From: a virus
Taxonomy: Duplodnaviria > Heunggongvirae > Uroviricota > Caudoviricetes
Virus record (IMG/VR): IMGVR_UViG_2718218453_000007
Direction: 5' to 3' (one strand)
DNA length: 46,144 nucleotides
Below the pieces are notes generated by a model that was not told where the DNA came from, did no database searches, and saw only the letters and a list, made by a program, of their open reading frames with translations. The translations under genes and the position numbers were made by a program. This document shows positions 27,941 through 44,748 of the stretch, one piece after another (the first letter of the stretch is position 1; each line of letters opens with the position of its first letter).

Positions 27941-27995
27941 GGATATTTATCAGGATGCTACCAATGAAAGATACTGGAAAGCCAACTGCAAAAAG

Positions 27996-28310: not shown

Positions 28311-28314
28311 TGAA

Positions 28315-28530: not shown

Positions 28531-28597
28531 AACCCCACCTCGCAGATGCGGGTGCTGTGTAATGGAAATAAAAAGGCCACCTGACGTGGCCACCAGA

Positions 28598-29650: not shown

Positions 29651-29800
29651 GGATCAGTAAGCGTAACTCTGGTAGGCTCACTCTGCTTTTGCGCTAAAGC
29701 AGTGGGCCGTGGTTCGCTTGTGACCAGTAGGCATGAGCGAATGGCTGGCAGGTGCTACCAACACCCACCAGCCGCCCATTTTCACAGCAGGAAACCGCCA

Positions 29801-30004
29801 TTACTGGCAGCGTCTGAATTTATTCCCGTACCCGCCGTTATCCTTCGCCAGACCCGCCAGAACTAACTGAGTCAGTATTAACTGGCACCGGGCTTCGCTT
29901 ACTCCGGTAGTTCTCGTCATCATGCGTGGCGTTACCCACTTGTCAGCAGGTAAGAAATGAAGGACTGCGGCGGCGGTTTCTGTCATATCTTGCTGTTTTA
30001 GCAT
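29801..30004 (-). CDS. Small hypothetical protein (possible winged-helix), first ORF after the tR'-like terminator
   Basis: 67-aa ORF from the ATG at 30004 preceded by AAGGGA Shine-Dalgarno; track ORF (95 aa) extends upstream. Confidence 0.4.
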   Translation of the reverse strand: MLKQQDMTETAAAVLHFLPADKWVTPRMMTRTTGVSEARCQLILTQLVLAGLAKDNGGYGNKFRRCQ

Positions 30005-30120
30005 GTTTTTTCCCTTCTGGTTAACATGACATACCAATAACTCTTGTCTAAAAAGCCAGCAAGATAAAAAGCCAGTATTCACGACCACCAGCGTGTTTAC
30101 TGTACTGCACCAGGTTTACA

Positions 30121-30150
30121 GGTACAAAAAAACCGCTCAGCGGCGGGTTT
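30121..30150 (-). terminator. Putative late-operon leader terminator (tR'-like)
   Basis: CCGC-tga-GCGG GC-rich hairpin followed by T7 on the minus strand, upstream of the late MTase/lysis genes; stem is short. Confidence 0.35.
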
Positions 30151-30227
30151 AAGTTGTGTGGCGAAGTAACCACTCTTAACAGATTACAATGTTTTTTGCG
30201 GACCGCGCTAATGATTTCCTCTTTTTT

Positions 30228-30257
30228 TTGTTGTATTTTTCACACGGTTGCTAAAAT
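30228..30257 (+). promoter_or_regulatory. Putative sigma70 promoter for the plus-strand accessory cassette
   Basis: TTGTTG (-35), 18-nt spacer, TAAAAT (-10), ~15 nt upstream of the ATG at 30273. Confidence 0.35.
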
Positions 30258-30272
30258 TATTTCGGATCGATA

Positions 30273-31214
30273 ATGAGTACAGAAAATAAGAATAAAACTA
30301 GGCGAGTGAGAGTTGGTTTTTTCACTGGTAATGGAAGCAAAAAAGATGGCACATCTGCTGCAAAACTAGCCTTTGAGCAAATGACCACAGCAGATACTGT
30401 AACTTTTCCAATAACTTACACAACAGACACCCCAAATCGAGGGTTAAAGTTAGTTATTCTTCAAAAAGATACCACACTGCAATGTTACTTTGGTTACGTA
30501 TCGTGGAGAAGGGAATGCCTACTACCGTTCATCGAGGATGCTACAGGTAGTGAGAGAACAATTCCTTTAAATGATAAAGATTCTGTAGTTGAAAGAACAT
30601 ATTTTATCTATTACTACGAAACGGATTTATTAGCTATGACCCTCAACCATATAGGGCCCAAAGTAAATGATCTGGCATTCATTTTGTATAACAAAACTGA
30701 TTTAAAAAGCGTCACTTTTGAAGCCATTTGGAAACAAGAGAGCATGAAGGAACTGCTTGAGGACGGAAATATCCTACGTAGTTTCGATCTTATAGTTGCT
30801 GCTCCAAGAAACTTTAACAAAGCTAATTATAAGATTAAAAACCCTTTAGCTAATGAAATTATTGACATGGTTGTTGGTATGGGCGGGTCGCATCTAAGAT
30901 TAAATATGCGAGGTCGGATTCGCCCGAAAAAACAAGGTTTTAACTATCTAAAAACTTCTGTCACCGATGCTATTAAGGAACTACTTGAACTTTTTCCAAA
31001 AGGTTCTGGAGGTCTAAAAATTAAAAAAATTGATGTAACAGAGCCATCCAATAGAACGCCCAAAAGTCTACTTGACCAAGTATTGGTCAGTACAAAGACA
31101 ATCATTGTCAAAAGCGGTTATCCATCCGATTCTGATATCAGAACGGCGATGATATCTGCTAAAATTGATAACGCGAACTATCTTGCACAGTATGAGCTCG
31201 CTAGCAGAGACTAA
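30273..31214 (+). CDS. Hypothetical cytoplasmic protein (313 aa), first gene of a two-gene accessory cassette
   Basis: AT-rich ORF, opposite orientation to flanking phage genes; no recognisable catalytic motif. Confidence 0.6.
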   Translation: MSTENKNKTRRVRVGFFTGNGSKKDGTSAAKLAFEQMTTADTVTFPITYTTDTPNRGLKLVILQKDTTLQCYFGYVSWRRECLLPFIEDATGSERTIPLNDKDSVVERTYFIYYYETDLLAMTLNHIGPKVNDLAFILYNKTDLKSVTFEAIWKQESMKELLEDGNILRSFDLIVAAPRNFNKANYKIKNPLANEIIDMVVGMGGSHLRLNMRGRIRPKKQGFNYLKTSVTDAIKELLELFPKGSGGLKIKKIDVTEPSNRTPKSLLDQVLVSTKTIIVKSGYPSDSDIRTAMISAKIDNANYLAQYELASRD

Positions 31215-31223
31215 TAACCAAGC

Positions 31224-31685
31224 ATGGAGGACACAATGAGAGAATTAGCCACTTTTCTCTGGAAATGCGTCCTCTGGATTCTGTTGACCTATGCAGCGAC
31301 AAAACTGTTTAAACCGATGAAGCATGCTGACGTACTCACAACAGCGGGGGTGCTCTCGACTATATCAGGCATCCTGTTTGGTTTTGTTCTGGCTGCAATA
31401 TCTATATTTAGTAGTGCAAACAGCGATAAGGAAGGAGCAATTAATGCCCTTAAGCAAAACAACGTGTTACCAACTCTGGTAAATCGATTACTTTCAACAG
31501 GGTTAACTCTCATCGTCGCATGTATATTTCCATTGATAGCGATGTTTCTACCAGATGATGTTATTGTTGCGGGCAAACCTATTGATTTCCTATTCATACT
31601 GTTAGGCTTATCCTCCCTTATAATTTCGCTATATACCTTCGGAAGGTGTTGGTTAGTGTTACGAAAAATCTTCCCCCACTTGTGA
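31224..31685 (+). CDS. Integral membrane protein (about 4 TM helices), second gene of the accessory cassette
   Basis: Hydrophobic segments VLWILLTYAATKLF, VLSTISGILFGFVLAAISIF, LTLIVACIFPLIAMFL, FLFILLGLSSLIISLYTF; 9-nt gap after the upstream gene. Confidence 0.6.
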   Translation: MEDTMRELATFLWKCVLWILLTYAATKLFKPMKHADVLTTAGVLSTISGILFGFVLAAISIFSSANSDKEGAINALKQNNVLPTLVNRLLSTGLTLIVACIFPLIAMFLPDDVIVAGKPIDFLFILLGLSSLIISLYTFGRCWLVLRKIFPHL

Positions 31686-31687
31686 CA

Positions 31688-31714
31688 GGTTGGCCTCATA
31701 TGGGGCCAACCTGT
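31688..31714. other. Inverted repeat between the convergent cassette and Q-like gene
   Basis: AGGTTGGCC-tcatatgg-GGCCAACCT perfect 9-bp inverted repeat; no flanking T-run. Confidence 0.4.
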
Positions 31715-31720
31715 GCAACC

Positions 31721-32089
31721 CTAAGCGTCCATTTCAAGGTTAACATCCAACATTGAAAGGCAACCATCAATAAATCCTTCGGCTAGTTGTATTTCTATGC
31801 GTACCAATTTTTCATCCTTTCCACGCACCTTTGCAATCTTACGCTTGGATATTCTGTATAAATAATGTGCCACAAGCAGCGAGTGCTCATCTGGCTTTTT
31901 TTGCTTTAGACGAGCAAGACAACCTTCAATAATTAATGCATCACTATCTGAACAAGCCTGACGTGTTTTGCTTGTGTAGGGAAGAAGCCCCTTAAACCCA
32001 GCAGCTATAGGCGAATAGTCTACTCCAGAACTATCACTCGCCGCCCATGCTCCCCAACGCTCCAGAACCATCTGAATATCACGCATCAA
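31721..32089 (-). CDS. Q-like late antiterminator (small Q family)
   Basis: MRDIQMVLERWGAWAA...GCLARLKQKKPDEHSLLVAHYLY...MLDVNLEMDA resembles the ~125-aa phage antitermination Q family from memory; positioned upstream of the late/lysis genes. Confidence 0.55.
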   Translation of the reverse strand: MMRDIQMVLERWGAWAASDSSGVDYSPIAAGFKGLLPYTSKTRQACSDSDALIIEGCLARLKQKKPDEHSLLVAHYLYRISKRKIAKVRGKDEKLVRIEIQLAEGFIDGCLSMLDVNLEMDA

Positions 32090-32103
32090 CTTTCTCCACC
32101 AAA

Positions 32104-33099
32104 TCAGGCCAACACACCAATCGCCAGCGCGCGATCGATAAAACGAAATATCAGCTCCAGTTGGGAGCCATACTTCTCTTCAAATGCCACGGTATCCGCA
32201 TGCAGCTCGTCGTGATGCTTTCTGCACAAAGGCAACACAAAGAGGTCATGCGCTTTTGTACCCATTCCACCCTGACCGTGACCTATCAGGTGGTGGGGAT
32301 CATCAGCAGGCTTTCCACAACATGCACACGGCTGTGTCTTAACCCAGCGCGTGTACTTTTCATTAACCCAGCGGCGACGTTTTGGGCGTAACATAAAAGA
32401 CTCCGGCGACTCCGGATCCACTTCCAGCGCCAGCACTTTTTTCGCTTTATCCTGGATGATGCTGGTGGCAGGAACCGAAGGCACAAGGTCACTTTCCCGG
32501 GTAACAGACGGCACAACAGGCTTCGGTAATCTCAGTGCCTTACGGGCTGCACTTTCCGGTAAGGCATCAGCCAGGTCATTACGAACCAGCCACCAGCACA
32601 GTTCCGGCATTGTCACAACGTGACTGTCATCAAAACCGAGATCCCGACGCACAACAGACAACACCCAGCGGGCACAGTTATCCGTTGCCATTGATTCCAG
32701 CCGTTCCGTGAACTGATCGCGCAGCTGGTTATCGCAGTGCCAGCACAGACGGATTGCGCCCGGAGCGTGTCGCATTGTGGTCATGTTCTCGCTGTGCCAG
32801 TCGGAATGAGGCCACTGACAGCCCTTTTCACGAAGTAACCAGCTTTCAAGACATTCCACGCCACCCGCACGACGAATAACTGCCTCATTGCGGAACACGG
32901 CCCGAACGGCAGGATCATCCGCCAGCGGTTGTGATGCCGCCGGAACGGCACCACTGGCGAAAGATGAATAACGTTCCGGCTCAGGCTCCAGCAGGACACG
33001 CCCCTGCATAAACAGGGGCATCAGCTCTGAACCTGGCCTGAACAATACGATCCCCATACGCGGGGCAATTTCAGGGGTCAGTAGTGCTCTCACGGTCAC
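32104..33099 (-). CDS. DUF968 family protein (YdfU-like) with C-terminal HNH-like Cys/His motif
   Basis: C-terminal CACCGKPADDPHHLIGHGQGGMGTKAHDLFVLPLCRKHHDELH; nin-region location. Confidence 0.6.
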   Translation of the reverse strand: MTVRALLTPEIAPRMGIVLFRPGSELMPLFMQGRVLLEPEPERYSSFASGAVPAASQPLADDPAVRAVFRNEAVIRRAGGVECLESWLLREKGCQWPHSDWHSENMTTMRHAPGAIRLCWHCDNQLRDQFTERLESMATDNCARWVLSVVRRDLGFDDSHVVTMPELCWWLVRNDLADALPESAARKALRLPKPVVPSVTRESDLVPSVPATSIIQDKAKKVLALEVDPESPESFMLRPKRRRWVNEKYTRWVKTQPCACCGKPADDPHHLIGHGQGGMGTKAHDLFVLPLCRKHHDELHADTVAFEEKYGSQLELIFRFIDRALAIGVLA

Positions 33100-33100
33100 C

Positions 33101-33943
33101 TCAATGAACGGTATCGAGCAGCTTTAACAGCTCAGGGAATCGGGATTCGAAGAAATGCGGCTGCGTCTCGCGCGGATTTGCGGGACTGGTGATGTTCTTG
33201 CCGAACATGCAGCCTTTCGCTGTCAGCGACCAGAATTTTTTGATGTTGTTAATCGCGGTACGGCTGTATCGTTCGCGCTGCTCGACGATCCCCAGCTTCA
33301 CCATCTGGTGATATGCCTGATTAGCCGTCAGGCGGATACCATACTGTTTCAGCAGTGCACTCAGTGACAGTGTCGGGCGACTTGAGCCATCGTGTGCATC
33401 AGCAGGAGCATCAATGGCATAGCGCGGTGCCAGATTCGGTAAGCCAACAGCCTCCTGGAGTTTCTGACAGGCACCAAGCACTGAAGAGTTAGACAGGTTT
33501 AACTCCCGGCGCATAAAGTCCAGCAGGATCACGCCAGCCTGCATCTTGTCAGCAGCCTGTCCGGATAATTTTTCCGGTACGCTGGTTACCATATCGAAAG
33601 TACGGATCACCTTCAGATGGAATGACGGGCTGATCCACATTGCATAAGCATACACCAGTTCCTTGCAGACATACGTTCCCCGTTCATTTCCCCCATGAAT
33701 CACACTCACCGGGTCAACACCCAAATTCTGGGTGTTGGTCAATTCATGAACAAGCTCAACAGTTTGTTGGCTGGAAAGAAACTTTCCCGGCTCCTTGGTT
33801 CTGGCATTTGCACCAGATGCTACTGCTGCGCGATGCAGATCGTTCAGGCTGTAACGCCCATAAGCATCACGACGAACTTCAATACCATCAATGACCATCA
33901 GATTATTCATACTTCGTTTCTCCTCTTGATCAGGCGGCTGCAC
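33101..33943 (-). CDS. KilA-N domain protein
   Basis: N-terminal IDGIEVRRDAYGRYSLNDLHRAAV pattern typical of KilA-N DNA-binding domains. Confidence 0.6.
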   Translation of the reverse strand: MQPPDQEEKRSMNNLMVIDGIEVRRDAYGRYSLNDLHRAAVASGANARTKEPGKFLSSQQTVELVHELTNTQNLGVDPVSVIHGGNERGTYVCKELVYAYAMWISPSFHLKVIRTFDMVTSVPEKLSGQAADKMQAGVILLDFMRRELNLSNSSVLGACQKLQEAVGLPNLAPRYAIDAPADAHDGSSRPTLSLSALLKQYGIRLTANQAYHQMVKLGIVEQRERYSRTAINNIKKFWSLTAKGCMFGKNITSPANPRETQPHFFESRFPELLKLLDTVH

Positions 33944-34319
33944 CCGCCGTTTTCTCGTACTTACTGATGGTGATCTCGACCTTCCCTTCCGGGATAACCG
34001 GTCCCCACTCCACCAGCATTCTTTTCACCTGTCTGTCGTCTTCCCACACACCCGCGTGGGTCAGGGCGTCAAACAGCGCCTTGTTATAGTTGTCCAGATC
34101 GCGGATCCGGTTATCCGGAGGAAACAACACGATCTCCACTGAAGCAGGTGCCGACGTTGGTTTTGGCAGACGACGTAACTGCTCAACTATTGCTGCGCAC
34201 GCCGCGCTCTGAAATTTTCGCCCCGCCGCGCTTATCAGGCTCTTACCAGCAAATGCCCCTTTGTTGGGGTGTCGCCAGTAGGTGTTCACGCTGGGCGGGA
34301 AAGGCAGGATCAGCTTCAT
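33930..34319 (-). CDS. rusA: Holliday junction resolvase RusA
   Basis: MKLILPFPPSVNTYWR...DLDNYNKALFDALTHAGVWEDD matches the RusA family including catalytic Asp residues. Confidence 0.9.
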   Translation of the reverse strand: MKLILPFPPSVNTYWRHPNKGAFAGKSLISAAGRKFQSAACAAIVEQLRRLPKPTSAPASVEIVLFPPDNRIRDLDNYNKALFDALTHAGVWEDDRQVKRMLVEWGPVIPEGKVEITISKYEKTAGAAA

Positions 34320-34642
34320 ACTTTCAGGCCTCTCTCATGTAACCAGTGAGTTGCACGCAGCCTTGCGTTTTCCTCACCGGCAAGCAGTGAGCGGATAATC
34401 CCGACCGCCTCGCTGTCGTCGTCCTTCACCGCGGTATGAAGCGTGATCCCCCGGGCCACACCACGCTTTATCGTGATGACGCCTTTTTTCTCCAGTGCGC
34501 GAAGATGCTCCACCGCTGCATTCACCGAACGGTATCCCAGCATGGTTGCCACCTCCTGATTGGTTGGCGGGAAGCCACGCTCTTTCTGATAAGAAATCAG
34601 CATATCCAGCACCTGCTGCTGGCATTGAGTTAACGTCGTCAT
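34316..34642 (-). CDS. LexA N-terminal DNA-binding-domain-like protein (no S24 peptidase domain)
   Basis: LTQCQQQVLDMLISYQKERGFPPTNQEVATMLGYRSVNAAVEHLRALEKKGVITI resembles the LexA winged-helix domain; protein is only 108 aa. Confidence 0.6.
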   Translation of the reverse strand: MTTLTQCQQQVLDMLISYQKERGFPPTNQEVATMLGYRSVNAAVEHLRALEKKGVITIKRGVARGITLHTAVKDDDSEAVGIIRSLLAGEENARLRATHWLHERGLKV

Positions 34643-35292
34643 GCCGCCATCTCCCTGACCAGCTTTTCCGCCTGCAGGCGAACCTGCGCCAGAAACGCCT
34701 CACCACATGCCTCAAGTTCATCGCGCCCGATATAGCTGATTGCCGGTCCCTTCCAGGTCTTGTCGAAAACAGCAATAGCACCAGCGAAGAAAGCGCCTGT
34801 CGGCACCTGCTTCTCATCCTTCGGGATAAACCAGGCAGGCAGTTCAAAACCAATACGCCCGCGAATAAAAGCAATATGATCTGCATCTTCCGGCCACCAC
34901 ACTTCGCTGGTGGCAGCTTTGATCAGGAAAACATAGCGCCCGCCCTTATCACGCATGGCACTGGCATGCTTCATGATGTAACGCATGCCGGTGATGTATT
35001 GCCCCTCATGCTGACTGGCGCGGCTGTATGGGGGATTTCCAAAGGCAGCACCTTTAAGCTCCGCAAGGCGTTCTGACCAGTCATGCGCCAGCGCGTTGTC
35101 TTCCGCCGTGTAATACGCAGCGCATTTGGCGTTATCACCGTCAGTGAACAGATCCAGAACAAACGGACCAAACAGGGTGTTAATTCCCCAGAAAATGTTG
35201 TCCGGCGTGCGCCACTGATCGCCCACTTCCTTCAGTTCATGGGCTGGTTTGTTCCGCAGTTCCACCAGCGCCTGGCAATATTTATTACTCAT
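34639..35292 (-). CDS. Phage Dam-type N6-adenine DNA methyltransferase (orphan)
   Basis: NPPY motif (FGNPPYS); stop/start overlap TAATG with the upstream gene at 35290-35294; the track ORF start (35325) is 11 codons upstream. Confidence 0.85.
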   Translation of the reverse strand: MSNKYCQALVELRNKPAHELKEVGDQWRTPDNIFWGINTLFGPFVLDLFTDGDNAKCAAYYTAEDNALAHDWSERLAELKGAAFGNPPYSRASQHEGQYITGMRYIMKHASAMRDKGGRYVFLIKAATSEVWWPEDADHIAFIRGRIGFELPAWFIPKDEKQVPTGAFFAGAIAVFDKTWKGPAISYIGRDELEACGEAFLAQVRLQAEKLVREMAA

Positions 35293-35780
35293 TAAGCCCC
35301 CACGTAATTCCCTGACAGATACCACTCATCACCCGATACAGCGCGCTTGCTGCTTTTCCGTAAACACTGCTCACGACGCGCCAGAAAATTGTTTCGTTCT
35401 GGCTGGGAGTGGCTTTCACGGAATGCAGCCATCCACACCGTTGCAGCACGACGGTATAAGCCCCTGGACTCCAGTTCTTCAGCCTGGCGGGTCAGGCATA
35501 AAATCTCCCGCGGGTCGTTAGTGCCGACATAGAAATTGCGCACAGGTCTGGTTTCACGAACTGGTTGCCGTTCCGCCTCCGGCGATATCTTTATCTGGCG
35601 CGGAAAATGTCTGCGTGTATCCCCTTCACAACGGTGAGCCACACGCCCACTCTGACGTAACTTGCTTGCTGACTGCAGAACGCGCTGCCGTGAGTAACCT
35701 GCAAAAGCATCTGCAATGTCTCCGGAAGTACACCCCGGATGGGCTTCAATGAATTTCTGAACTTCATTCAAAAGACTCAT
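35292..35780 (-). CDS. YfdN-like hypothetical protein
   Basis: 162-aa ORF between the O-like and Dam genes; same position and length as CPS-53 YfdN, from memory. Confidence 0.45.
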   Translation of the reverse strand: MSLLNEVQKFIEAHPGCTSGDIADAFAGYSRQRVLQSASKLRQSGRVAHRCEGDTRRHFPRQIKISPEAERQPVRETRPVRNFYVGTNDPREILCLTRQAEELESRGLYRRAATVWMAAFRESHSQPERNNFLARREQCLRKSSKRAVSGDEWYLSGNYVGA

Positions 35781-35782
35781 GA

Positions 35783-36601
35783 TTACCCCCTGAATCCTGC
35801 CGGGATCTGGCTGTAGTCCACGTTGTCGTAACTGGCTTTGAAGTACGGGTCCTCGCGTCTGGCTGCAGATACCGCAGGAACTTCCCAGGATTCTTCGAAA
35901 TGACGATCCGGACCAAAGAACGTGACAGCCTGTTTCACAAATTGTGTGCCGCTGTTACCCATCGCAGATACCCAGCCCGCATAGCGTTTCACACCTTCCA
36001 GCATGGTTTCGGGGTTTACCCCCTCATTCAAACGGGCTTTCCAGGCTTTGAAGGCTGCAGATTTTGAATTGCCACCAGCACGTTTGGGATATGCCAGCCA
36101 TGCCTGCTCAAACTCCGGAGAGTATTCCGGTCGGTTTGAACGAACTCGCACAGACTCATCAGCAGATGCACCAACAGCTATTGGTTCATTGACTGGTTCT
36201 TTGACTGGTTCAAAAGAGTGACTGGTTCTGGGTGAATCTCCTGCACTACCCCCTGGTGCAACTCCTGCACTACCTGGTGAATTTGCTGCACCAGATAGTG
36301 AATTATTTGCACTACCCCCTAGTGAATCTCCTGCACCATCCAGATGAAGGAGATAGATATTACTTGAGTTACCTTTTTCACCTTTCCGGGTGACTTTTTT
36401 TACCAGCCCGGACTCACAAAGGGCCGCAATATGATTCATCACAGAACGTTTGCTAATCTCGCACTGGTCAGCAATATGCTGGTAGCTGGGCCAGCACTCA
36501 CCCTGATCGCTGGCATTATCAGCCAGCTTGATCAGAACCAGTTTTCGCAATGGATTACCCACTCGAATTTTCATCGCTTTAACCATCAGCTCCATACTCA
36601 T
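35783..36601 (-). CDS. Replication initiator, lambda O-like (N-terminal HTH, repeat-encoded linker)
   Basis: N-terminal KLVLIKLADNASDQGECWPSYQHIADQCEISKRSVMNHIAAL HTH; central low-complexity linker GGSANNSLSGAANSPGSAGVAPGGSAGDSP encoded by DNA direct repeats. Confidence 0.75.
   Translation of the reverse strand: MSMELMVKAMKIRVGNPLRKLVLIKLADNASDQGECWPSYQHIADQCEISKRSVMNHIAALCESGLVKKVTRKGEKGNSSNIYLLHLDGAGDSLGGSANNSLSGAANSPGSAGVAPGGSAGDSPRTSHSFEPVKEPVNEPIAVGASADESVRVRSNRPEYSPEFEQAWLAYPKRAGGNSKSAAFKAWKARLNEGVNPETMLEGVKRYAGWVSAMGNSGTQFVKQAVTFFGPDRHFEESWEVPAVSAARREDPYFKASYDNVDYSQIPAGFRG
36180..36340. repeat. Candidate replication origin iterons inside the O-like gene
   Basis: Three copies of TGACTGGTTC (36184-36227) followed by three to four copies of a ~19-bp unit TGCACTACC(C)CCT(G/A)GTGAA (36241-36336) with internal dyad symmetry. 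Confidence 0.6.
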
Positions 36602-36834
36602 GCTGCACCTCCGAGATGCTTCATGTTTTTTCCGGAGCGAAAGGCTATAAGCGGCATACTGACGCGGTAATTACGGCCCAGCGGTTCACAAATCACCTTC
36701 TGACATTCACGGTCAACCAGGCTGACACGTAGAACATGCCCTGCTGGCGTGGTGTACCACTGCCCAACTGTGGGTGTTGATATTTTTTTACGCTGAAATA
36801 AACGGTAAATGTTGAGGAGCAACGGATTAAGCAT
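36598..36834 (-). CDS. Small hypothetical protein
   Basis: 78-aa ORF overlapping both neighbours by a few nt (operon-like); no family recognised. Confidence 0.35.
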   Translation of the reverse strand: MLNPLLLNIYRLFQRKKISTPTVGQWYTTPAGHVLRVSLVDRECQKVICEPLGRNYRVSMPLIAFRSGKNMKHLGGAA

Positions 36835-37663
36835 GACGATGCCCTCCGCTGATATTCAGGAGACGGTGAATATGAAAATTAGCCTTATCCGCCAGACGAA
36901 TACGTTCAGCTTGCAAGTTAAGAAGGGTTTCTACCAGAACCTGATGTGCCTGCGGATCCGAAAGAGTTACCTTGCGCAGAGCACGTAGTGCAGTTGTTAC
37001 ATAACTGAGTTTATGTAAGTCTTCATCATTCAGACGAGTGAGGGCTGGGACAGTAGCCATGATGGCAGCCTCCTTGATCGGTGAAATACTTCCACCACCG
37101 GAAACGCCAATTTCGCTGGTGGTGAACTGAACGGGGTTGGCGTAACCGGTGATCAAGGAAACCGGCGCATCTTTCGATGCCCCCGCCCAGCCCACCATAA
37201 CTTTGATGTGAGCAAATGCGGACGATAAAAAAGACGCTGGCGCGTCATATATCGCCTTGATCAATTCCAGGACGCCAATCCCGGCACCCGCTTTATAAGG
37301 TGCCTGAACAGTGTAACGTCCCGGAATGGCAGAATCAATGTGCTGGTGGTCCTTCACACTCAACAAAATCACGCTTGAATTTCCACAAAGGACTAAAGCA
37401 CTCATGCGGGTAGTCTTTGCGAAGATAGATAACGCGCTGTGTTTCTGGCTCCCAACGAATAACATGAACATAAAGTCCTCTTCCGTCACGAAACCAGCGG
37501 TTAAGTTCCTGCACAACTCGCCCCCCACAGTCAGGTAAAGTTCTCTGTGGTTACTTACAGCCAGGAGATTTGGTAATCTGCATTCATGCCGTAACAACAG
37601 GTGTTCAGCGACGCTGACCACCAGCTGTTGCGACAAACGGTTATTTGCCGTTAAACTGTTCAT
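36827..37663 (-). CDS. Hypothetical early protein (278 aa)
   Basis: ORF in the early-right operon between the CII-like and O-like genes; no family recognised. Confidence 0.5.
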   Translation of the reverse strand: MNSLTANNRLSQQLVVSVAEHLLLRHECRLPNLLAVSNHRELYLTVGGELCRNLTAGFVTEEDFMFMLFVGSQKHSALSIFAKTTRMSALVLCGNSSVILLSVKDHQHIDSAIPGRYTVQAPYKAGAGIGVLELIKAIYDAPASFLSSAFAHIKVMVGWAGASKDAPVSLITGYANPVQFTTSEIGVSGGGSISPIKEAAIMATVPALTRLNDEDLHKLSYVTTALRALRKVTLSDPQAHQVLVETLLNLQAERIRLADKANFHIHRLLNISGGHRHA

Positions 37664-38223
37664 GCGTTAGTTTCTCCACAGACACAAAACGCCACGACGC
37701 CCGGAGCTGCACACTCGCGGGCGTCACTCTTTTCTGGAGCGCAAAAGATTTTGTAGACCAGTGCTGCATGCTCCTGGAGCTTCGAAATTGACAGATACAA
37801 CTCATCATTAATTGCTGTCTGCTCGTGTGGCTCCACTACCCCATCTTCGATTGCCGAACGAATCTGCTTTGAGTAACTCCCGATCTGTTCGATGACTTCC
37901 AGCAGGCGCTGGTTTATATCGGCGTTCTCTACTTCCTCAATTTCAGGAAGCGATACAAACACCCCACCAGCAGACTGTGCGACAGCATCCGCAATGTAGT
38001 GAGTGCCAGCCGCGCGCTGTAAAATCATTGCCCATCCCAGCGGGAAAATCTGATCGCCATCTGCACGAAGGCGGTTGAATAAAGCGTTCTCTGTTACATC
38101 TAGCCACTCAGCAGCTTCAGCGTACCCCCCCGGCAACGCCGCGATAGTTTTTCTGACAGCTTTCACGTACCACTCAGGCTGTTTTTCTACTTTCCAGTGA
38201 TGCTTACCCACGGTTAGCCTCAT
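37660..38223 (-). CDS. CII-like / YdaT-like early regulator
   Basis: 187-aa ORF immediately downstream of the Cro-like gene; resembles the phage CII (CP76) / YdaT family by position and HTH-like segment AEAAEWLDVTENALFNRL. Confidence 0.4.
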   Translation of the reverse strand: MRLTVGKHHWKVEKQPEWYVKAVRKTIAALPGGYAEAAEWLDVTENALFNRLRADGDQIFPLGWAMILQRAAGTHYIADAVAQSAGGVFVSLPEIEEVENADINQRLLEVIEQIGSYSKQIRSAIEDGVVEPHEQTAINDELYLSISKLQEHAALVYKIFCAPEKSDARECAAPGVVAFCVCGETNA

Positions 38224-38455: not shown

Positions 38456-38545
38456 ACAATATGTACCTCCGATATACATATTACATGATTGAGATGAACC
38501 TTCAAGATACTTGTACCCTATCGGTACAAAGGTTTTAATTTCTTT
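38456..38545. promoter_or_regulatory. Immunity operator/promoter region (OR-like) between divergent Cro-like and repressor genes
   Basis: Palindromes ATGTA-N9-TACAT (38461-38479) and TTGTACC-ctatc-GGTACAA (38511-38529); minus-strand promoter TTGAAG-16 nt-TAATAT (38478-38505); repressor ATG at 38546 has no obvious Shine-Dalgarno (possible leaderless mRNA as for lambda cI). Confidence 0.55.
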
Positions 38546-39220
38546 ATGAAAACAGTCCATGACATCCGGCGGTCTAACGCCAGAAAACTGAGAGATGGTG
38601 TTGGCGGGAATTCTTCCTTTGCCACCATGATTGATCGCGAGCCAACCCAGACCAGCAGGTTTATGGGAGATGGTGCTACTAAAAATATCGGTGACAGCAT
38701 GGCACGGCACATCGAAAAATGTTTCGACCTGCCTGTCGGATGGCTTGATCAAGAACACCAGACAACAAACATCACAAAAAAACCTGATGTTTCAATTACT
38801 AACAAACAAATAACGTTAGTCCCTGTCATATCATGGGTACAGGCCGGAGCATGGAAAGAAGTTGGCTATTCTGAGGTTGATTTGAGCACAGCAGAAACTT
38901 ATCCCTGCCCTGTACCCTGTGGCGAAATGACTTATATCTTGCGGGTGATTGGTGATTCAATGATTGATGAGTACCGCCCGGGAGACATGATTTTTGTAGA
39001 TCCTGAAGTCCCTGCCTGCCACGGTGACGACGTTATTGCATTGATGCACGATTCAGGCGAAACCACCTTCAAGCGGTTGATAGAAGATGGAACACAGCGT
39101 TATCTCAAAGCATTAAACCCAAACTGGCCTGAGCCTTACATTAAGATTAACGGTAATTGCTCTATAATTGGTACAGTGATTTTCTCGGGAAAACCAAGAA
39201 GATACACAATAAAGGCCTAA
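38546..39220 (+). CDS. CI-like prophage repressor (HTH + S24 LexA-like peptidase domain)
   Basis: C-terminal ...ILRVIGDSMIDEYRPGDMIFVDPE...ALMHDSGETTFKRL... with the Ser (GDSM) / Lys (FKRL) dyad arrangement of S24 autopeptidases. Confidence 0.85.
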   Translation: MKTVHDIRRSNARKLRDGVGGNSSFATMIDREPTQTSRFMGDGATKNIGDSMARHIEKCFDLPVGWLDQEHQTTNITKKPDVSITNKQITLVPVISWVQAGAWKEVGYSEVDLSTAETYPCPVPCGEMTYILRVIGDSMIDEYRPGDMIFVDPEVPACHGDDVIALMHDSGETTFKRLIEDGTQRYLKALNPNWPEPYIKINGNCSIIGTVIFSGKPRRYTIKA

Positions 39221-39232
39221 TCAATATTTATG

Positions 39233-39257
39233 AACCTGCTTCGGCAGGTTTTTTTAT
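39233..39257 (+). terminator. Intrinsic terminator after repressor gene
   Basis: AACCTGC-ttcg-GCAGGTT hairpin followed by T7. Confidence 0.7.
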
Positions 39258-39259
39258 GC

Positions 39260-39292
39260 TTGACAATGTACCCATGAGATACATAATGTATC
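39260..39292 (+). promoter_or_regulatory. pL-like early promoter with overlapping palindromic operator
   Basis: TTGACA (39260-39265), 16-nt spacer, CATAAT (39282-39287); 15-bp perfect palindrome GATACATAATGTATC (39278-39292) over the -10 element, sharing the ATGTA/TACAT half-site with the OR palindromes. Confidence 0.55.
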
Positions 39293-39738
39293 TAAAAGAA
39301 ACATAACACAGGCAAGATTAAAACAAAATTTGGTTGTAACACGGCGTATGGCACATGCGTCGTTAGCGGTCTGGTGACGTTAAAGGGGACAATCCACTCC
39401 TTGCTCGAGCAAACAAACCAGGTAGCCGGAATGTGCAAGTCAATGATGATGCTGATAAGACGCCTAACCAGCGTGGCGATTCGGTTTGACGCCTGGGAAG
39501 AGACCAGGGTGCAACGATGAGGGCATTTATGGAACCGCGACAAAGTGTGGTGCCGTAACTGGCTAAGTGCTCTCAGCGTTGTGGTAATCCGCGAAATGGC
39601 GCGGCGGTAAGTATGGCGGGGTTACTCTTTCCCCGTTGAGGACACCGGATTGTCAGGTTGACCATACGCCTGAGTGACAACCCCACCACAACAGCCACTG
39701 CTTTGGCGGTACCAGTTTGTACACTTGCTTCCGGCTGG

Positions 39739-39753
39739 TACCGCTCTTTTTAC
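39739..39753 (+). promoter_or_regulatory. boxA-like element (possible nutL component) in the early-left leader
   Basis: CGCTCTTTTTACAA resembles the boxA consensus (rrn TGCTCTTTAACAA; lambda CGCTCTTA) and lies in the long leader between pL-like promoter and the first early gene. Confidence 0.3.
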
Positions 39754-39888
39754 AAAACAGAGAAGAGCATCACCGGACGACGGGCTCATAACCCAATCCA
39801 TCCGGGCGGCTGCCACCGCAGGTGTTCTTCTCTGTTTTGTGGAGAAACCAACCGACCTTGCAGGGTCGATATGATGAGGAGCAGCAAA

Positions 39889-40251
39889 ATGGCTAGCGAA
39901 CGCAGTACTGATGTACAGGCATTTATCGGGGAGCTGGACGGCGGCGTATTTGAAACCAAAATCGGCGCAGTTCTCAGTGAAGTCGCTTCCGGTGTGATGA
40001 ACACGAAAACCAAAGGTAAGGTCTCACTCAACCTGGAAATCGAACCGTTTGATGAGAGCCGTGTGAAAATCAAACATAAACTCTCATATGTCCGCCCGAC
40101 TAACCGCGGGAAAATTTCCGAAGAAGACACCACCGAAACGCCGATGTATGTCAATCGCGGTGGTCGCCTGACTATTCTGCAGGAAGACCAGGGACAATTA
40201 CTGACTCTTGCCGGTGAACCTGACGGAAAACTCCGCGCAGCAGGTCATTAA
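39889..40251 (+). CDS. YfdP-like early protein (120 aa)
   Basis: ATG at 39889 preceded by GAGGA Shine-Dalgarno; same length and position as CPS-53 YfdP upstream of YfdQ; the longer track ORF (39658) extends into the leader. Confidence 0.5.
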   Translation: MASERSTDVQAFIGELDGGVFETKIGAVLSEVASGVMNTKTKGKVSLNLEIEPFDESRVKIKHKLSYVRPTNRGKISEEDTTETPMYVNRGGRLTILQEDQGQLLTLAGEPDGKLRAAGH

Positions 40252-40316
40252 TATCGTTCTTAATTAACTGATTATTTATCTCATCACTGAATATCTTTAT
40301 ATAGTGAGGACTTATT

Positions 40317-41141
40317 ATGTCTCAGAACTTAGACGCAACCGCAATTAATCAAATCCATGCCCTTATTTCTTCTCAGGGTGTTAATGAAATTATCAGTAAG
40401 ATTGGTGCCGATGCTGTGGCATTACCTGAGAATTTCCGCATTCATGATCTGGAAAAATTTAATTTAAATCGCTTCCGTTTCCGTGGCGCGCTTTCCACTG
40501 CCAGCATCGATGACTTTACCCGTTATTCTAAAGATCTTGCAGATGAAGGCACCCGCTGCTTTATCGATGCCGATAATATGCGAGCCGTCAGTGTGCTTAA
40601 CCTGGGCACTATTGATGAACCAGGTCACGCAGATAACACCGCCACTCTCAAACTGAAAAAGACAGCACCGTTCTCTGCTCTGTTGTCTGTTAATGGCGAG
40701 CGTAACTCCCAGAAATCACTGGCAGAATGGATTGAAGACTGGGCCGACTACCTTGTGGGCTTTGATGCTAATGGTGACACCATTCAGGCAACAAAAGCGG
40801 CTGCGGCGGTCCGTAAAATCACGATTGAAGCAAACCAGACCGCTGATTTTGAAGATAATGACTTCAGCGGCAAACGCTCCCTGATGGAGTCTGTCGAAGC
40901 GAAGACCAAAGACATTATGCCAGTGGCATTTGAATTTAAATGCGTTCCGTTTGAAGGCCTGAAAGAACGTCCATTTAAATTACGCCTCAGCATTATCACT
41001 GGCGATCGTCCTGTACTGGTTCTGCGCATTATTCAGCTGGAAGCGGTGCAGGAAGAAATGGCTAACGAATTTCGTGATCTGCTTGTTGAGAAATTCAAAG
41101 ACAGCAAAGTAGAAACCTTTATTGGTACTTTCACCGCCTGA
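40317..41141 (+). CDS. yfdQ: YfdQ-like protein (DUF2303 family)
   Basis: 274-aa ORF; length and sequence character recalled as CPS-53 YfdQ family; followed by an HD-domain gene as in CPS-53. Confidence 0.6.
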
Positions 41142-41268
41142 TTTCATTACTGCAAATGCCCCTGCGGGGGCATTTATGGAAACGTAATTTACTCAATAAT
41201 CGCCGGATGGTGAGGGATTCTTTTTACCAGAATTCAGCGCGGTGCAGCGCATATACGTGGAGAACAAA

Positions 41269-41805
41269 ATGTCATTTATTAAAACTTTTTCCGGGAAGCA
41301 TTTTTATTATGACAAGATAAATAAAGACGACATCAATATTAACGATATCGCGGTTTCCCTTTCAAATATCTGTCGCTTTGCCGGTCATCTTTCGCACTTC
41401 TACAGCGTCGCCCAACATGCGGTTCTTTGCAGCCAGCTGGTGCCGCAGGAATTTGCTTTTGAAGCCTTAATGCATGATGCAACAGAAGCGTATTGCCAGG
41501 ACATCCCCGCGCCACTGAAACGCCTTCTTCCTGACTATAAACGGATGGAAGAAAAAATAGACGCCGTAATCCGTGAGAAATACGGGTTACCCCCGGTTAT
41601 GAGTACGCCCGTGAAATATGCCGATCTTATCATGCTGGCAACCGAACGCCGCGATCTCGGGCTTGATGATGGCTCTTTCTGGCCTGTACTGGAAGGCATC
41701 CCGGCAACAGAGATGTTCAACGTGATTCCACTGTCGCCAGGCCATGCCTATGGGATGTTTATGGAACGCTTCAACGAGTTATCGGAATTACGCAAATGTG
41801 CATAA
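41269..41805 (+). CDS. yfdR: HD-domain 5'-deoxynucleotidase, YfdR-like
   Basis: HD-type metal-binding residues in ...LSNICRFAGHLSHFYSVAQHAVLCSQL...ALMHDATEAY...; ATG at 41269 preceded by GGAGAA; 178 aa as K-12 YfdR. Confidence 0.65.
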   Translation: MSFIKTFSGKHFYYDKINKDDININDIAVSLSNICRFAGHLSHFYSVAQHAVLCSQLVPQEFAFEALMHDATEAYCQDIPAPLKRLLPDYKRMEEKIDAVIREKYGLPPVMSTPVKYADLIMLATERRDLGLDDGSFWPVLEGIPATEMFNVIPLSPGHAYGMFMERFNELSELRKCA

Positions 41806-42674
41806 CTCATGTAGTTAGTTTTTCTGGCGGGAGAACATCCGCATATCTTGTTCACCTGATGGAAGAACAAAGAAAGGCTGGCAATAACGTCTGCTACATC
41901 TTTATGGATACCGGTTGCGAACATCCGCTGACATACCGCTTTATTCGGGAGGTTGTGAAGTTCTGGGGCATACCACTAACTGTGTTGCAGGTCGATATCA
42001 ATCCTGAGCTTGGGCAGCCAAATGGTTATACAGAATGGGAGCCAAAGGATATTCAGACGCGAATGCCGGTACTTAAACCGTTTATGGACATGGTTAAAAA
42101 GTACGGCACGCCATACATCGGTGGCGCATTCTGTACTGACAGGCTAAAACTCATCCCTTTCACGAAATACTGCGATAACCATTTCGGGCGAGGTAATTAC
42201 ATCACATGGCTGGGTATTCGTGCAGACGAACCCCGTAGGCTGAAACCGAAATCGGGCATCCGGTATCTTGCCGAACTGTCAGATTTTGATAAGTCGGATG
42301 TTATCCGGTGGTGGCGAAAACAACCTTTTGATTTGCAAATCCCGGAGCATCTCGGGAACTGTGTTTTCTGCATCAAAAAGTCAACGCAAAAGCTGGGGCT
42401 TGCATGTAAAGACGAACCAGGTCTGATGCGGGTTTTTAATGAACTGGTTACAGGCAAACACGTCAGGGATGGTCATCGCAGAACAGGTAAAGACGTTATG
42501 TACCGTGGTCACCTGACGCTTGACGGAATTGCCAGAATGTCTGCCAACAGCGACTACAGAAATTTGTATCAGGCGATGGTACAGGCCAGGCGATTCGATA
42601 CCGGCTCGTGTTCAGAGTCATGTGAAATCTGGGGTGATCAATTGGAATTGAAATTCGAAGAGGTAGGGGTATGA
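41796..42674 (+). CDS. PAPS-reductase-like / PP-loop ATP pyrophosphatase family protein
   Basis: N-terminal PP-loop-like motif VVSFSGGRTSAYL; C-terminal Cys cluster (CVFC...C..C). Confidence 0.65.
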   Translation: MCITHVVSFSGGRTSAYLVHLMEEQRKAGNNVCYIFMDTGCEHPLTYRFIREVVKFWGIPLTVLQVDINPELGQPNGYTEWEPKDIQTRMPVLKPFMDMVKKYGTPYIGGAFCTDRLKLIPFTKYCDNHFGRGNYITWLGIRADEPRRLKPKSGIRYLAELSDFDKSDVIRWWRKQPFDLQIPEHLGNCVFCIKKSTQKLGLACKDEPGLMRVFNELVTGKHVRDGHRRTGKDVMYRGHLTLDGIARMSANSDYRNLYQAMVQARRFDTGSCSESCEIWGDQLELKFEEVGV

Positions 42675-43018
42675 CAACCGAAATTAACTACCATGCACTG
42701 CTTGAGCGCGCACGGAATAAAGTGCAGAGCATTGAGTTCGCCTTAACACAGAGTGCATTCGCTGAGATTCGCGCTGAGCTTGAAGATGATTTAGAACTGG
42801 CACGGATTGCACTGGCATCTCTGGAAGTTGAGCCAGATGAACGCGCAGCCTATGAATTATTTATGGAAAAGCGTTTCGGTAAAACAGTCGATCGTCGGAG
42901 AGCAAAAAACGGTGATAACGAGTACATGGCGTGGGATATGGCTCTCGGCTGGGTCGTCTGGAAACAACGCGCTGGCATGAGTCTTTCAACTGCACAACCA
43001 CAGGAGGGTCAACAATGA
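42671..43018 (+). CDS. Hypothetical early protein (115 aa)
   Basis: ORF overlapping the upstream stop by 4 nt (translational coupling); no family recognised. Confidence 0.45.
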   Translation: MTTEINYHALLERARNKVQSIEFALTQSAFAEIRAELEDDLELARIALASLEVEPDERAAYELFMEKRFGKTVDRRRAKNGDNEYMAWDMALGWVVWKQRAGMSLSTAQPQEGQQ

Positions 43019-43209
43019 ACAACTTAATGACAACAAAACAAGTCGCCGAATTCTGTGGAGTTTCAATATCGACGGTGCTTCGCTGGAACAGTGTAAACCG
43101 GAGGACTGGTCAGAAATATCGGCCTGATTTTCCAGATCCTGATATTAAATCCTGCCCAAATAAATGGGCATCACGTAAGATATACAGGTTTGCAGGAGTA
43201 ATTGAGTAA
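43015..43209 (+). CDS. Excisionase-like HTH protein (Xis/AlpA-type)
   Basis: MNNLMTTKQVAEFCGVSISTVLRWNSV... HTH typical of small excisionase/AlpA proteins; GGAGGG Shine-Dalgarno upstream of the ATG at 43015; last gene of the operon facing int. Confidence 0.55.
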   Translation: MNNLMTTKQVAEFCGVSISTVLRWNSVNRRTGQKYRPDFPDPDIKSCPNKWASRKIYRFAGVIE

Positions 43210-43268
43210 CAAACATTAGCTCAAATGTGAGCTGGCACATCTATGGCACAAGCCAAACAGATCTGACT

Positions 43269-43309
43269 GTCTGCTCTGTATCAAGAGCAGACAAGCTATT
43301 TATTTTTTT
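43269..43309 (+). terminator. Intrinsic terminator ending the early-left operon
   Basis: GTCTGCTCT-gtatca-AGAGCAGAC 9-bp perfect stem followed by a T-rich run (TATTTATTTTTTT). Confidence 0.7.
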
Positions 43310-43494: not shown

Positions 43495-44748
43495 TTATTT
43501 TAATTTTCCCGTACCTCGAAGAAGTGATAGGTATTGATCAGTGGCAAGTAATGGTAGATTATTCTCTTGGCTAGAGTCGATATCTCTAATTAAAATTGTA
43601 CGGTTTTTTATGCTGAACTTGTATTTAGCCTCCAGCATTGCCCAAAACATTCTTTTATTTAATCTTGATAGTCTTATAAAATTTACAAGACCTTCAAGGC
43701 TCATAACTAAAACTTTCGCCCCTTTTGACTCTTTAAGGTTGCTAATTTCGTTATAAATCTTTTCAGCACCTTCTTTCTCTAAAACAAGATCTGAGATTAT
43801 CACTAAATGATAAATACCCTTTCTGCGCTTTATTAAGCATTCCCTCCCGTCATAATTAATAACCACATCATTATTTAGAATTGGGATAACGCCTTTAACC
43901 TGATCGATCCCTTGCAATGCTTTTTTCTTATACATGCTACAAAGCTTTTCATGAGATTTCAAACCCATTTCAATCAAAGATGATGCTTTAGACTGTATAG
44001 ATAATACATAGTCATTTTCTACAATAAGAATATCAACTAGTTCTCTTTTTTTATTACCCTCAATAATATCTGGAGAAAAAAACACTTCCTCCGGTGAAAA
44101 GACCTGCCGCAAAGCATGGTATATAAGAGCTTCCTGCTCATATCCCTCAGAGCCGTTTTCACTGACGCTAAATTCATATGTTAATACGGTATCGTTTGGT
44201 TCATGAACACTTGCTAGGTAAGATTTTTTATCGATTACACTTAGTGGCAGACTAATTATTTTCTCGTTACCAGTCAAAGCATTGTTGCAGAATTCATCCA
44301 TTGCTTCATTACCTTCCCTAAATCCTGAATTGAGAGAATATGAATTAGCACAAAATTTTTTTAAACATTCACACGGTAAATTTTCCGAAACTTTTATTTT
44401 CAGGTCCATAACACGCATTGTATGCGAGTCAAAAAATGATAATAGAATACCATCATAAGCGCCTGACAATAACAAATCCAGCCCTTTAATTTCATCTACC
44501 TCTCTTGGTGGATAGGCTAGTAAAAATGGATTATCGACATTATCTTCAATCAACATCCCAATCACTAGTATATTTTTAGTAGATAAACCTACCAAAAAGT
44601 GGATAGGTGCTCCTGACCAGACGGATTTAATTATAGGAAGGCTTGATTTAAGTATTATGTGGATATTACGATTTTCACTATCTACCCACACTCCATGTAA
44701 CTCATTGTTTAAATAGGCCAAAAGTTTAGTATTCATTTCAACTTTCAT
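43495..44748 (-). CDS. Hypothetical protein (417 aa), AT-rich orphan gene between Xis-like and int
   Basis: Long uninterrupted AT-rich ORF with its own upstream intergenic region; no confident domain assignment; a possible PD-(D/E)xK-like segment (VDILIVENDYVLSIQSK) is speculative. Confidence 0.6.
   Translation of the reverse strand: MKVEMNTKLLAYLNNELHGVWVDSENRNIHIILKSSLPIIKSVWSGAPIHFLVGLSTKNILVIGMLIEDNVDNPFLLAYPPREVDEIKGLDLLLSGAYDGILLSFFDSHTMRVMDLKIKVSENLPCECLKKFCANSYSLNSGFREGNEAMDEFCNNALTGNEKIISLPLSVIDKKSYLASVHEPNDTVLTYEFSVSENGSEGYEQEALIYHALRQVFSPEEVFFSPDIIEGNKKRELVDILIVENDYVLSIQSKASSLIEMGLKSHEKLCSMYKKKALQGIDQVKGVIPILNNDVVINYDGRECLIKRRKGIYHLVIISDLVLEKEGAEKIYNEISNLKESKGAKVLVMSLEGLVNFIRLSRLNKRMFWAMLEAKYKFSIKNRTILIRDIDSSQENNLPLLATDQYLSLLRGTGKLK

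Follow-up and report, generated by a model that had tools for sequence, protein, structure and literature searches.

Phosphorothioate DNA-modification systems contain subunits, among them SspD, DndC and BrxP, that resemble phosphoadenosine phosphosulfate (PAPS) reductases (PMC12707154; PMC12914056), and a phage gene of the same kind has been tied to escape from such a system. When Piel et al. moved p0018 and p0019 of Vibrio phage 44E38.1 into a related, sensitive phage, the recipient grew on a host protected by Dnd (bioRxiv 10.1101/2021.05.05.442762). A 2026 paper in Nucleic Acids Research cites the p0018 work as a phage PAPS reductase promoting Dnd evasion, and lists such PAPS genes in Aca-regulated anti-defence operons (PMC13551039). 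A different line of work concerns the yfdP-T cluster of the Escherichia coli K-12 prophage CPS-53 (KpLE1): YfdR binds domain I of DnaA in a Phe46-dependent manner, and initiation at oriC is inhibited by multicopy yfdQ and yfdR together with either yfdS or yfdT (Noguchi and Katayama, 2016; PMC4776307). Here we describe a locus in which relatives of both stand side by side, a yfdP-yfdQ-yfdR block followed directly by a gene for a PAPS-reductase-like protein. It occupies positions 39889-42674 of a 46,144-nucleotide stretch of phage DNA (IMG/VR record IMGVR_UViG_2718218453_000007), and by the window we mean that whole stretch.

The window is present at 100% identity in the chromosome of E. coli strain a15, and the prophage concerned is a largely intact, lambda-like element between prfC and yjjG. 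We consider the locus best explained overall as a mosaic early-left operon, in which a conserved yfdPQR block is joined to a swappable PP-loop cassette that probably serves in counter-defence; we put the probability of this reading at roughly 0.6. The genes in question are the following.

39889-40251, + strand: yfdP, 120 amino acids, 118 of 120 residues identical to K-12 YfdP; phrog_204.
40317-41141, + strand: yfdQ, 274 amino acids, DUF2303 (PF10065, E 5e-92), 270 of 274 residues identical to K-12 YfdQ.
41269-41805, + strand: yfdR, 178 amino acids, HD domain, 175 of 178 residues identical to K-12 YfdR; phrog_318, E 1.5e-111.
41796-42674, + strand: PAPS-reductase-like PP-loop ATP pyrophosphatase, 292 amino acids, called PAPS-like below; phrog_424 over the full length, E 8e-92.

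A longer yfdR, beginning at a GTG at 41242, is also possible. RefSeq names the corresponding genes of strain a15 yfdP, "YfdQ family protein", yfdR ("5'-deoxynucleotidase") and "phosphoadenosine phosphosulfate reductase family protein".

A conserved block and a variable slot

The sequence-only reading of the window had described these genes as encoding a DUF2303 protein, an HD-domain protein and a PP-loop, PAPS-reductase-like protein, and had called the locus CPS-53-like. The gene calls hold, with E-values far beyond chance, and the alignments of YfdQ and YfdR to their K-12 counterparts leave their similarity clearly significant. The resemblance to CPS-53 is real for part of the locus. The yfdP, yfdQ and yfdR products are 98-99% identical, the genes have equal order and spacing, the gene that follows uses the same ATG inside the 3' end of yfdR, and a YfdT-like open reading frame (ORF) comes next, whose C-terminal part is also shared. 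The resemblance does not extend to the N-terminus of the YfdT-like ORF, nor to the gene between it and yfdR, which in CPS-53 is yfdS (DUF551) and here is the unrelated PAPS-like gene. It also fails for the excisionase, which has no similarity to TorI, and for the integrase, which is only 22% identical to IntS. CPS-53 is integrated at argW, whereas the prophage studied here lies at prfC/yjjG and has kept a full lambda-like gene set. The sequence-only reading had further given weight to an intact copy of the yfd genes in an apparently functional prophage. Of 5426 complete E. coli genomes, 3148 contain some part of the stretch 39600-43300 and 270 contain 80% of it or more; an intact yfd block in a prophage is nothing unusual, being seen in over half of complete E. 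coli genomes.

The boundary between the block and the PAPS-like gene is sharp. A search with positions 41500-43300 gave matches from 3021 E. coli genomes, and in the great majority of these they end at query position 304, that is at 41803, in the yfdR stop. The PAPS-like gene and K-12 yfdS share one ATG within the last codons of yfdR (CGC AAA TGx GCA TxA; 41796-41805 here, 11512-11521 of the K-12 locus L002), and similarity between the two loci ceases at the stop codon. That two different cargo genes use a single ATG suggests that yfdR supplies both the start codon and translational coupling to any occupant of the slot. K-12 YfdS was considered as a remnant of the PAPS-like gene and rejected, as the two have no similarity and YfdS is a DUF551 protein.

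We surveyed the slot in the 80 IMG/VR loci closest by YfdQ. All 80 keep yfdP, yfdQ and yfdR. The slot behind them holds YfdS/DUF551 in about 50, a 296-residue membrane protein in 8 and the PAPS-like gene in 4; Ead/Ea22-like coiled-coil proteins, a methyltransferase-like gene, a DnaQ-like exonuclease and others fill the remainder. The PAPS-like gene was followed in turn, in the 80 closest viral contigs: 49 have it after yfdR, 8 have it after yfdQ and another gene, and in the other 23 no gene of the yfdPQR block lies within 5 kb of it. Of the 5426 E. coli genomes, 430 carry the gene, 72 of its places being on plasmids, and among isolated phages O276 has it next to NinB and Oslo next to a DNA methyltransferase. 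Because the slot is so variable, and because the gene occurs without yfdPQR, the PAPS-like gene is a mobile single-gene cassette and not a functional partner of YfdQ or YfdR. The sequence-only reading had placed the PP-loop enzyme in one module with YfdQ and YfdR, and had offered nucleotide or DNA modification as an alternative role for it; the shared module falls away, since the enzyme is cargo of the slot, and the modification alternative is the better-supported half.

The operon is accordingly a mosaic of two units. Unit 1 (about 39700-41805) comprises a structured leader, yfdP, yfdQ and yfdR, essentially as in CPS-53 and in thousands of E. coli prophages. Unit 2 (41796-42674) is a single-gene cassette, set in a slot that begins at the yfdR stop and coupled to the block through the ATG in the yfdR end.

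The cassette encodes a relative of SspD, DndC and BrxP

Alignment of 41 homologues of the PAPS-like protein shows an invariant PP-loop, S8-x-S10-G11-G12-R13-x-S15, and six invariant cysteines (Cys113, 126, 189, 192, 272 and 276). The loop itself reads SGGRTS (S10-G11-G12-R13-T14-S15) and is invariant or nearly so, which places the protein in the PP-loop ATP pyrophosphatase superfamily. Among the defence-system profiles of PADLOC it matches SspD (E 3.7e-15), BrxP (3e-4) and DndC (6e-3), and the 41 aligned homologues match these profiles in 41, 37 and 10 cases, respectively. Like SspD, DndC and BrxP, the protein thus combines the PP-loop motif with these profile matches, and its richness in cysteine would be consistent with Fe-S or persulfide chemistry. 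The settings differ, in that SspD, DndC and BrxP sit in chromosomal defence islands and the PAPS-like gene in a phage early lytic operon.

The relationship to sulfate-assimilation enzymes appears more distant. PF01507 (PAPS_reduct) matches at E 1e-8, over residues 5-71 only, and the NCBIfam CysH equivalog model PRK02090 gives 20.2 bits against a cut-off of 154. CysH-type reductases carry the C-terminal catalytic motif ECGLH. Read directly, the PAPS-like sequence lacks it. An AlphaFold2 model of the protein (predicted local distance difference test score, or pLDDT, 86.8) finds CysH and adenosine phosphosulfate (APS) reductase as its best folds in the PDB, followed by GMP synthetase, LarE and TtuA. 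On sequence grounds we place the PAPS-like protein in the SspD/DndC/BrxP branch and not with the CysH-type enzymes.

A proposed counter-defence role for the cassette

The PAPS-like protein is 55% identical to p0018 of Vibrio phage 44E38.1 over 283 amino acids (E 9e-110, 96% query coverage). This homology runs over the whole PAPS domain of p0018 and includes the PP-loop and the six cysteines, and both genes belong to phage early regions. The two proteins differ in extent: p0018 consists of a PAPS domain fused to a C-terminal Dam methyltransferase, whereas the E. coli protein is stand-alone and ends after the PAPS domain. The neighbourhoods differ as well, since p0018 is adjoined by p0019 (DUF6475), which is without counterpart here. 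We considered p0019 as a homologue of YfdR, encoded upstream of the PAPS-like gene, and rejected it, as p0019 is a DUF6475 protein with no similarity to YfdR. The absence of any such relationship means that an HD gene and a PAPS gene do not form a two-gene module. JSS1_004, the other known anti-Dnd protein, is unrelated to the PAPS-like protein, being a T7 gp0.7-like kinase.

A Dam-family N6-adenine methyltransferase is encoded elsewhere in the window, in the nin region (34639-35292, - strand), and is 28% identical to the Dam domain of p0018 (E 7e-14). The PAPS and Dam domains that are fused in p0018 are separate genes in the E. coli prophage. Dam-family genes are common in lambdoid phages.

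Because the PAPS-like protein resembles SspD, BrxP and DndC, and because it is 55% identical to a gene implicated in escape from Dnd, we take counter-defence to be the best reading of the cassette, and a likely one, by homology to p0018. The enzyme would be produced right after infection or induction, and would shield phage DNA from phosphorothioate-dependent (Dnd-type) restriction. Its chemistry would probably consist of ATP-dependent adenylation and sulfur transfer on DNA, possibly with the help of host sulfur-donor or Dnd partner proteins. The other half of the picture concerns YfdR, whose nearly identical K-12 counterpart binds DnaA domain I and, when supplied at high dosage together with YfdQ and either YfdS or YfdT, dampens initiation at oriC.

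Several observations weigh against this reading of the operon. The experiments that support it were made with the Vibrio relative p0018 and none with the E. coli PAPS-like protein. The fragment transferred between the Vibrio phages also carried p0019 and the fused Dam domain, and the effect of the PAPS domain by itself was not isolated (10.1101/2021.05.05.442762); in a study of coral Vibrio phages with PAPS genes, infection showed no dependence on the Dnd status of the host (PMC10945359). The fold matches of the PAPS-like model have template modelling scores (TM-scores) of 0.38-0.5, and no solved DndC or SspD structure is among them. The SspD match is limited to the N-terminal half (profile positions 2-123 of 277), and the window holds no DndD/E or SspB/C partner genes. 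Since the profile match is partial and partner genes are missing, the protein is, as judged from sequence, one that resembles DndC and SspD subunits without belonging to a system of that kind. The calls that define the operon (promoter, operator and terminator; see below) are consensus matches only. As to YfdR, the YfbR-type models score below their cut-offs (PF12917, 24.2 against 25.9 bits; NCBIfam PRK03826, 19.8 against 122), so the RefSeq label "5'-deoxynucleotidase" does not rest on either of them, and a literature search for primary biochemical evidence behind that name found none. The authors of the DnaA study themselves wrote that the effect on initiation "might be an artifact" of overexpression (PMC4776307).

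Other explanations of the cassette start from the same protein. It could be a self-sufficient sulfur- or adenylyl-transferase acting on DNA or nucleotides, which would mark phage DNA early by a phosphorothioate or some other backbone or base modification, with sulfur drawn from host IscS, and so hide the DNA from the sensors of Dnd, Ssp or type 4 BREX. Coupling to a deoxynucleoside monophosphate (dNMP) phosphohydrolase, YfdR, might then mean a shared nucleotide-level pathway, and YfdP and YfdQ might, secondarily, make up a new-fold two-protein early module that forms large oligomers on replicating or recombining phage DNA. We think this joint picture unlikely. It has also to be asked whether the cassette works in defence and not against it, by stand-alone or host-assisted phosphorothioation that marks the DNA of the lysogen and guards the lysogen from other phages. 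The likeness to the modification subunits SspD, BrxP and DndC would suit such a component, as would the habit of prophages of carrying defence genes, of which the SLATT and RT_UG17 pair at the left end of this one is an example. Against it, the window holds no DNA-recognition, ATPase or restriction partner genes, the gene lies inside a repressor-controlled operon and is coupled to yfdR, unlike an independently expressed moron, and homologues occur in virulent Vibrio podophages; we judge this very improbable. That the gene is an auxiliary metabolic gene, a true PAPS or APS reductase that would boost sulfate assimilation in infected cells or in lysogens, is suggested by the PF01507 match, by the PHROG label "phosphoadenosine phosphosulfate reductase" (category auxiliary metabolic gene) and by CysH and APS reductase as top PDB folds. 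The confinement of that Pfam match to residues 5-71, the 20 bits against 154 for the CysH equivalog, the missing ECGLH motif, the low TM-scores (0.38-0.5) and the SspD profile matched by all 41 homologues speak against it, however; E. coli already has cysH, and the gene stands within a repressed early lytic operon. We give this explanation hardly any credence.

Possible roles of the conserved block

YfdR has an intact HD metal-binding motif (H50, H69-D70, D78 and D119, read directly and aligning with PDB 2gz4), and its closest solved relative is Atu1052 (PDB 2gz4, E 6e-14). Homologues occur in 324 phage genomes, including virulent jumbo phages of Caulobacter, Stenotrophomonas and Bacillus, a breadth that points to a general HD phosphohydrolase role. 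YfbR-family 5'-deoxynucleotidases share the HD fold and motif, the Pfam YfbR-like match of YfdR falling just under the cut-off, and the YfbR-family HD enzyme of Roseophage DSS3_VP1 is a deoxythymidine monophosphate phosphohydrolase (PMC12697855), a precedent for phage dNMP phosphohydrolases that reshape nucleotide pools. YfdR differs from that family in that DnaA binding is known for YfdR only, in its scores below the curated cut-offs and in having a predicted substrate. Most likely, to judge by its motif and relatives, YfdR is an HD-domain phosphohydrolase acting on deoxynucleoside monophosphates.

YfdQ is a full-length member of its family, with PF10065 scoring 308 bits against a cut-off of 26.6 and covered over profile positions 2-269 of 269. 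A solved homologue exists in PDB 9o7m (36 chains, titled "YfdQ Protein", E 2.5e-44), for which a literature search found no paper. The AlphaFold2 model of YfdQ (pLDDT 76) gave nothing below E 0.09 in a PDB fold library to April 2026, which did not include 9o7m, and in a BFVD fold search it found other DUF2303 proteins only. No PDB relatives were found for YfdP or the YfdT-like ORF, and the PADLOC scan gave no match for YfdP, YfdQ, YfdR, the YfdT-like ORF or orf417, a gene further along the window.

The gene yfdP is always directly 5' of yfdQ, distant phages included. Homologues of the two proteins (39-40% identity) are adjacent in Vibrio phage 44E38.1 and in Xanthomonas phage Sopo. In 44E38.1 the pair comes after genes for a strand-annealing protein, an exonuclease and an RNase T-like exonuclease, with a single-stranded DNA-binding protein (SSB) encoded just downstream, and in Sopo genes for a recombinase and an exonuclease are close by; no HD gene was found beside the pair in either phage. 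From these Vibrio and Xanthomonas neighbourhoods we conclude that the YfdP-YfdQ pair is the conserved core and is tied to DNA-transaction genes.

A takeover of host replication had been proposed for the block in the sequence-only reading, on the strength of the reported inhibition of initiation and of DnaA binding by YfdR, a literature that it had described accurately (PMC4776307). On this account derepressed YfdR, with YfdQ and the YfdT-like protein, would bind DnaA domain I, block the interactions with DiaA and DnaB and stop initiation at oriC, and the selected function of the block would be to free replication resources for the phage. The K-12 proteins with which the experiments were done are 98-99% identical to the YfdQ and YfdR encoded here, and DnaA domain I binding is to be expected of the YfdR encoded here from its 175 of 178 residues in common with the assayed protein. 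In K-12, yfdQ, yfdR and yfdT are sufficient, and that set is arguably present in the window, where yfdQ and yfdR are near-identical, the YfdT-like ORF matches at 72% identity across 79 of 101 residues and diverges at its N-terminus, and yfdS is absent. Placement in the early operon would lead one to expect strong expression on induction, and phage inhibition of DnaA has a precedent in lambda P (discussed in PMC4776307). Set against this, deletion had no phenotype, inhibition was seen at multicopy only and may have been an artefact of it, competition with DiaA and DnaB was moderate, and neither YfdR nor DnaA was strongly bound by YfdQ, YfdS or YfdT (PMC4776307). YfdR homologues are, moreover, widespread in virulent phages (Caulobacter, Bacillus, Stenotrophomonas and others), the yfdPQ pair lacks an adjacent yfdR in the Vibrio and Xanthomonas phages, and the N-terminal third of the YfdT-like ORF is unlike K-12 YfdT. 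A role of YfdQRT in replication control during phage growth may be supposed from these likenesses, but the takeover of host replication is a conjecture, possible and weakly grounded. A further proposal would make yfdP and yfdQ, perhaps with yfdR, an unrecognised recombination or replication module that replaces a Red/Erf-type Rec module. The block does stand at the lambdoid Rec position, in a phage that has no Rec module: the six ORFs of the operon matched no recombinase, strand-annealing, exonuclease or Gam/RecBCD-inhibitor family in profile searches, and the a15 RefSeq annotation has no Rec-module gene, only RusA in the nin region, so the earlier observation that these genes are present instead of lambda-type recombination genes was correct. 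The neighbours of the pair, between a strand-annealing protein, exonucleases and SSB in 44E38.1 and near a recombinase and an exonuclease in Sopo, would fit such a module, and the 36-chain assembly of the YfdQ homologue would, speculatively, suit a ring or filament former. The pair also occurs beside complete Rec modules, however, in 44E38.1 and, for example, in phage ArgO145 (PMC12315714), and no solved annealing protein resembles the YfdQ model in fold. Zheng, Casjens et al. (2025), who found yfdP/Q/R-type genes to be common in lambdoid early-left operons, judge a cryptic recombination role unlikely because the genes coexist with full Rec modules (PMC12315714). An abundance of Chi sites, described next, fits reliance on host RecBCD instead, and we regard the proposal as distinctly unlikely.

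Chi sites (GCTGGTGG) number 16 in the window against 1.6 expected from shuffles, and none of 100 shuffles reached 16. All lie within 27515-37971 (10.5 kb), so that they cluster in one terminal third of the virion map, and 11 are on the - strand. This excess, together with the lack of a Rec module, fits reliance on host RecBCD and membership of the LLS class of lambdoid phages (also ST64B and phiNP), which share yfdP/Q/R-type early-left genes, the absence of recognisable recombination genes and Chi enrichment (PMC12315714). The prophage shows both traits of that class, no Rec module and high Chi. LLS proteins are only about 57-67% identical to those encoded here, and RecBCD dependence of this prophage is a suggestion from its sequence.

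Prophage setting and control signals

In the RefSeq annotation of strain a15, the structural, lysis and regulatory genes of the prophage make up a complete lambda-like complement, with one pseudogene. Around the genes discussed above we find the following features.

38546-39220: ymfK, cI-like repressor gene, directly before the early-left signals.
39232-39251, + strand: terminator-like hairpin and T-run just 3' of ymfK, 8-bp stem with 4 GC pairs, from a consensus scan.
39260-39287, + strand: promoter-like site TTGACA-16-CATAAT, 11 of 12 consensus positions; candidate early-left (PL-type) promoter.
39266-39285: operator-like palindrome ATGTAC-N8-ATACAT, overlapping the promoter-like site and recurring in the cI/cro intergenic region at 38461-38480.
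about 39696-39892, + strand: structured leader 5' of yfdP, at the left edge of the conserved yfdPQR block.
42671-43018, + strand: YfdT-like ORF, 115 amino acids, its start overlapping the PAPS-like stop (ATGA); phrog_660.
43015-43209, + strand: xis, excisionase, 64 amino acids; phrog_1553, E 2e-35, with weak HTH_17, MerR and Xis_Gifsy_1 matches.
43268-43293, + strand: strong terminator-like hairpin after xis, 10-bp stem and T-rich tail, which would close the operon.

The promoter-like site and palindrome after ymfK, and the terminator-like hairpin after xis, are the signals from which we assign the six ORFs from yfdP to xis to a repressor-controlled early-left operon. The two copies of the palindrome suggest OR- and OL-type operators of an e14/ymfK-type immunity region. 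At the distal end of the operon, the YfdT-like ORF is 72% identical to K-12 YfdT over 79 C-terminal residues and has no Pfam match, and xis is without a coding sequence in the RefSeq record of the identical a15 sequence.

The leader folds with a z-score of -6.9 against 200 shuffles. It contains, in order, a 13-bp hairpin, a U-run, a 25-bp hairpin that pairs with the U-run and, ahead of the ribosome-binding site of yfdP, a short hairpin. Homology upstream of yfdP has its left edge at about 39680-39700 in 70 of 118 related loci, and the leader travels with the yfdPQR block. An Rfam search of it returned no family, only a single sub-threshold chance match. Judging by its fold, it could be a terminator/antiterminator or a processing element.

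Other genes of the prophage

The left end of the prophage holds a SLATT-domain gene (1-552) and a UG17 reverse transcriptase gene (530-1900), which match the PADLOC profiles RTasSLATT (E 1e-56) and RT_UG17 (E 1e-158); these matches indicate that the two form an anti-phage defence pair of the DRT type, carried as a moron. A low-GC island (30273-31685, about 38-41% GC), flanked by the Q antiterminator gene and by the DNA-methyltransferase and lysis genes, holds two hypothetical genes of 313 and 149 amino acids on the + strand. Neither matches a PADLOC profile, and by position and composition they are probably another moron pair. On the - strand, Rfam matches above the gathering score identify a C4 antisense RNA (37115-37202, 82 bits) and the Hfq-binding small RNA isrK (37227-37303, 64 bits), which fall, at 37115-37303, in a region annotated with "ash family" and DUF4222 genes. 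Between xis and int, orf417 (43495-44748, - strand, 417 amino acids, 36-39% GC) has no Pfam, NCBIfam or PADLOC match, its sole match being phrog_30399 (unknown function); it looks like a horizontally acquired moron.

Significance

The genes described here are ordinary ones, widespread and annotated in RefSeq, and the link between phage PAPS-like genes and Dnd evasion is already known, so that the finding as it stands carries little weight. What it refines is the way in which such loci are read. The slot after yfdR has sharp bounds, and the PAPS-like gene in it is a cassette that moves independently, with no partner in YfdQ or YfdR, and should not be taken for a sulfate-assimilation gene; at the core of the conserved block stand YfdP and YfdQ as a pair. 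What novelty is left concerns the chemistry of a stand-alone PAPS-like enzyme and the function of YfdP and YfdQ. If the cassette does defeat phosphorothioate-based restriction, it would offer a tractable model for an anti-defence mechanism and its chemistry.

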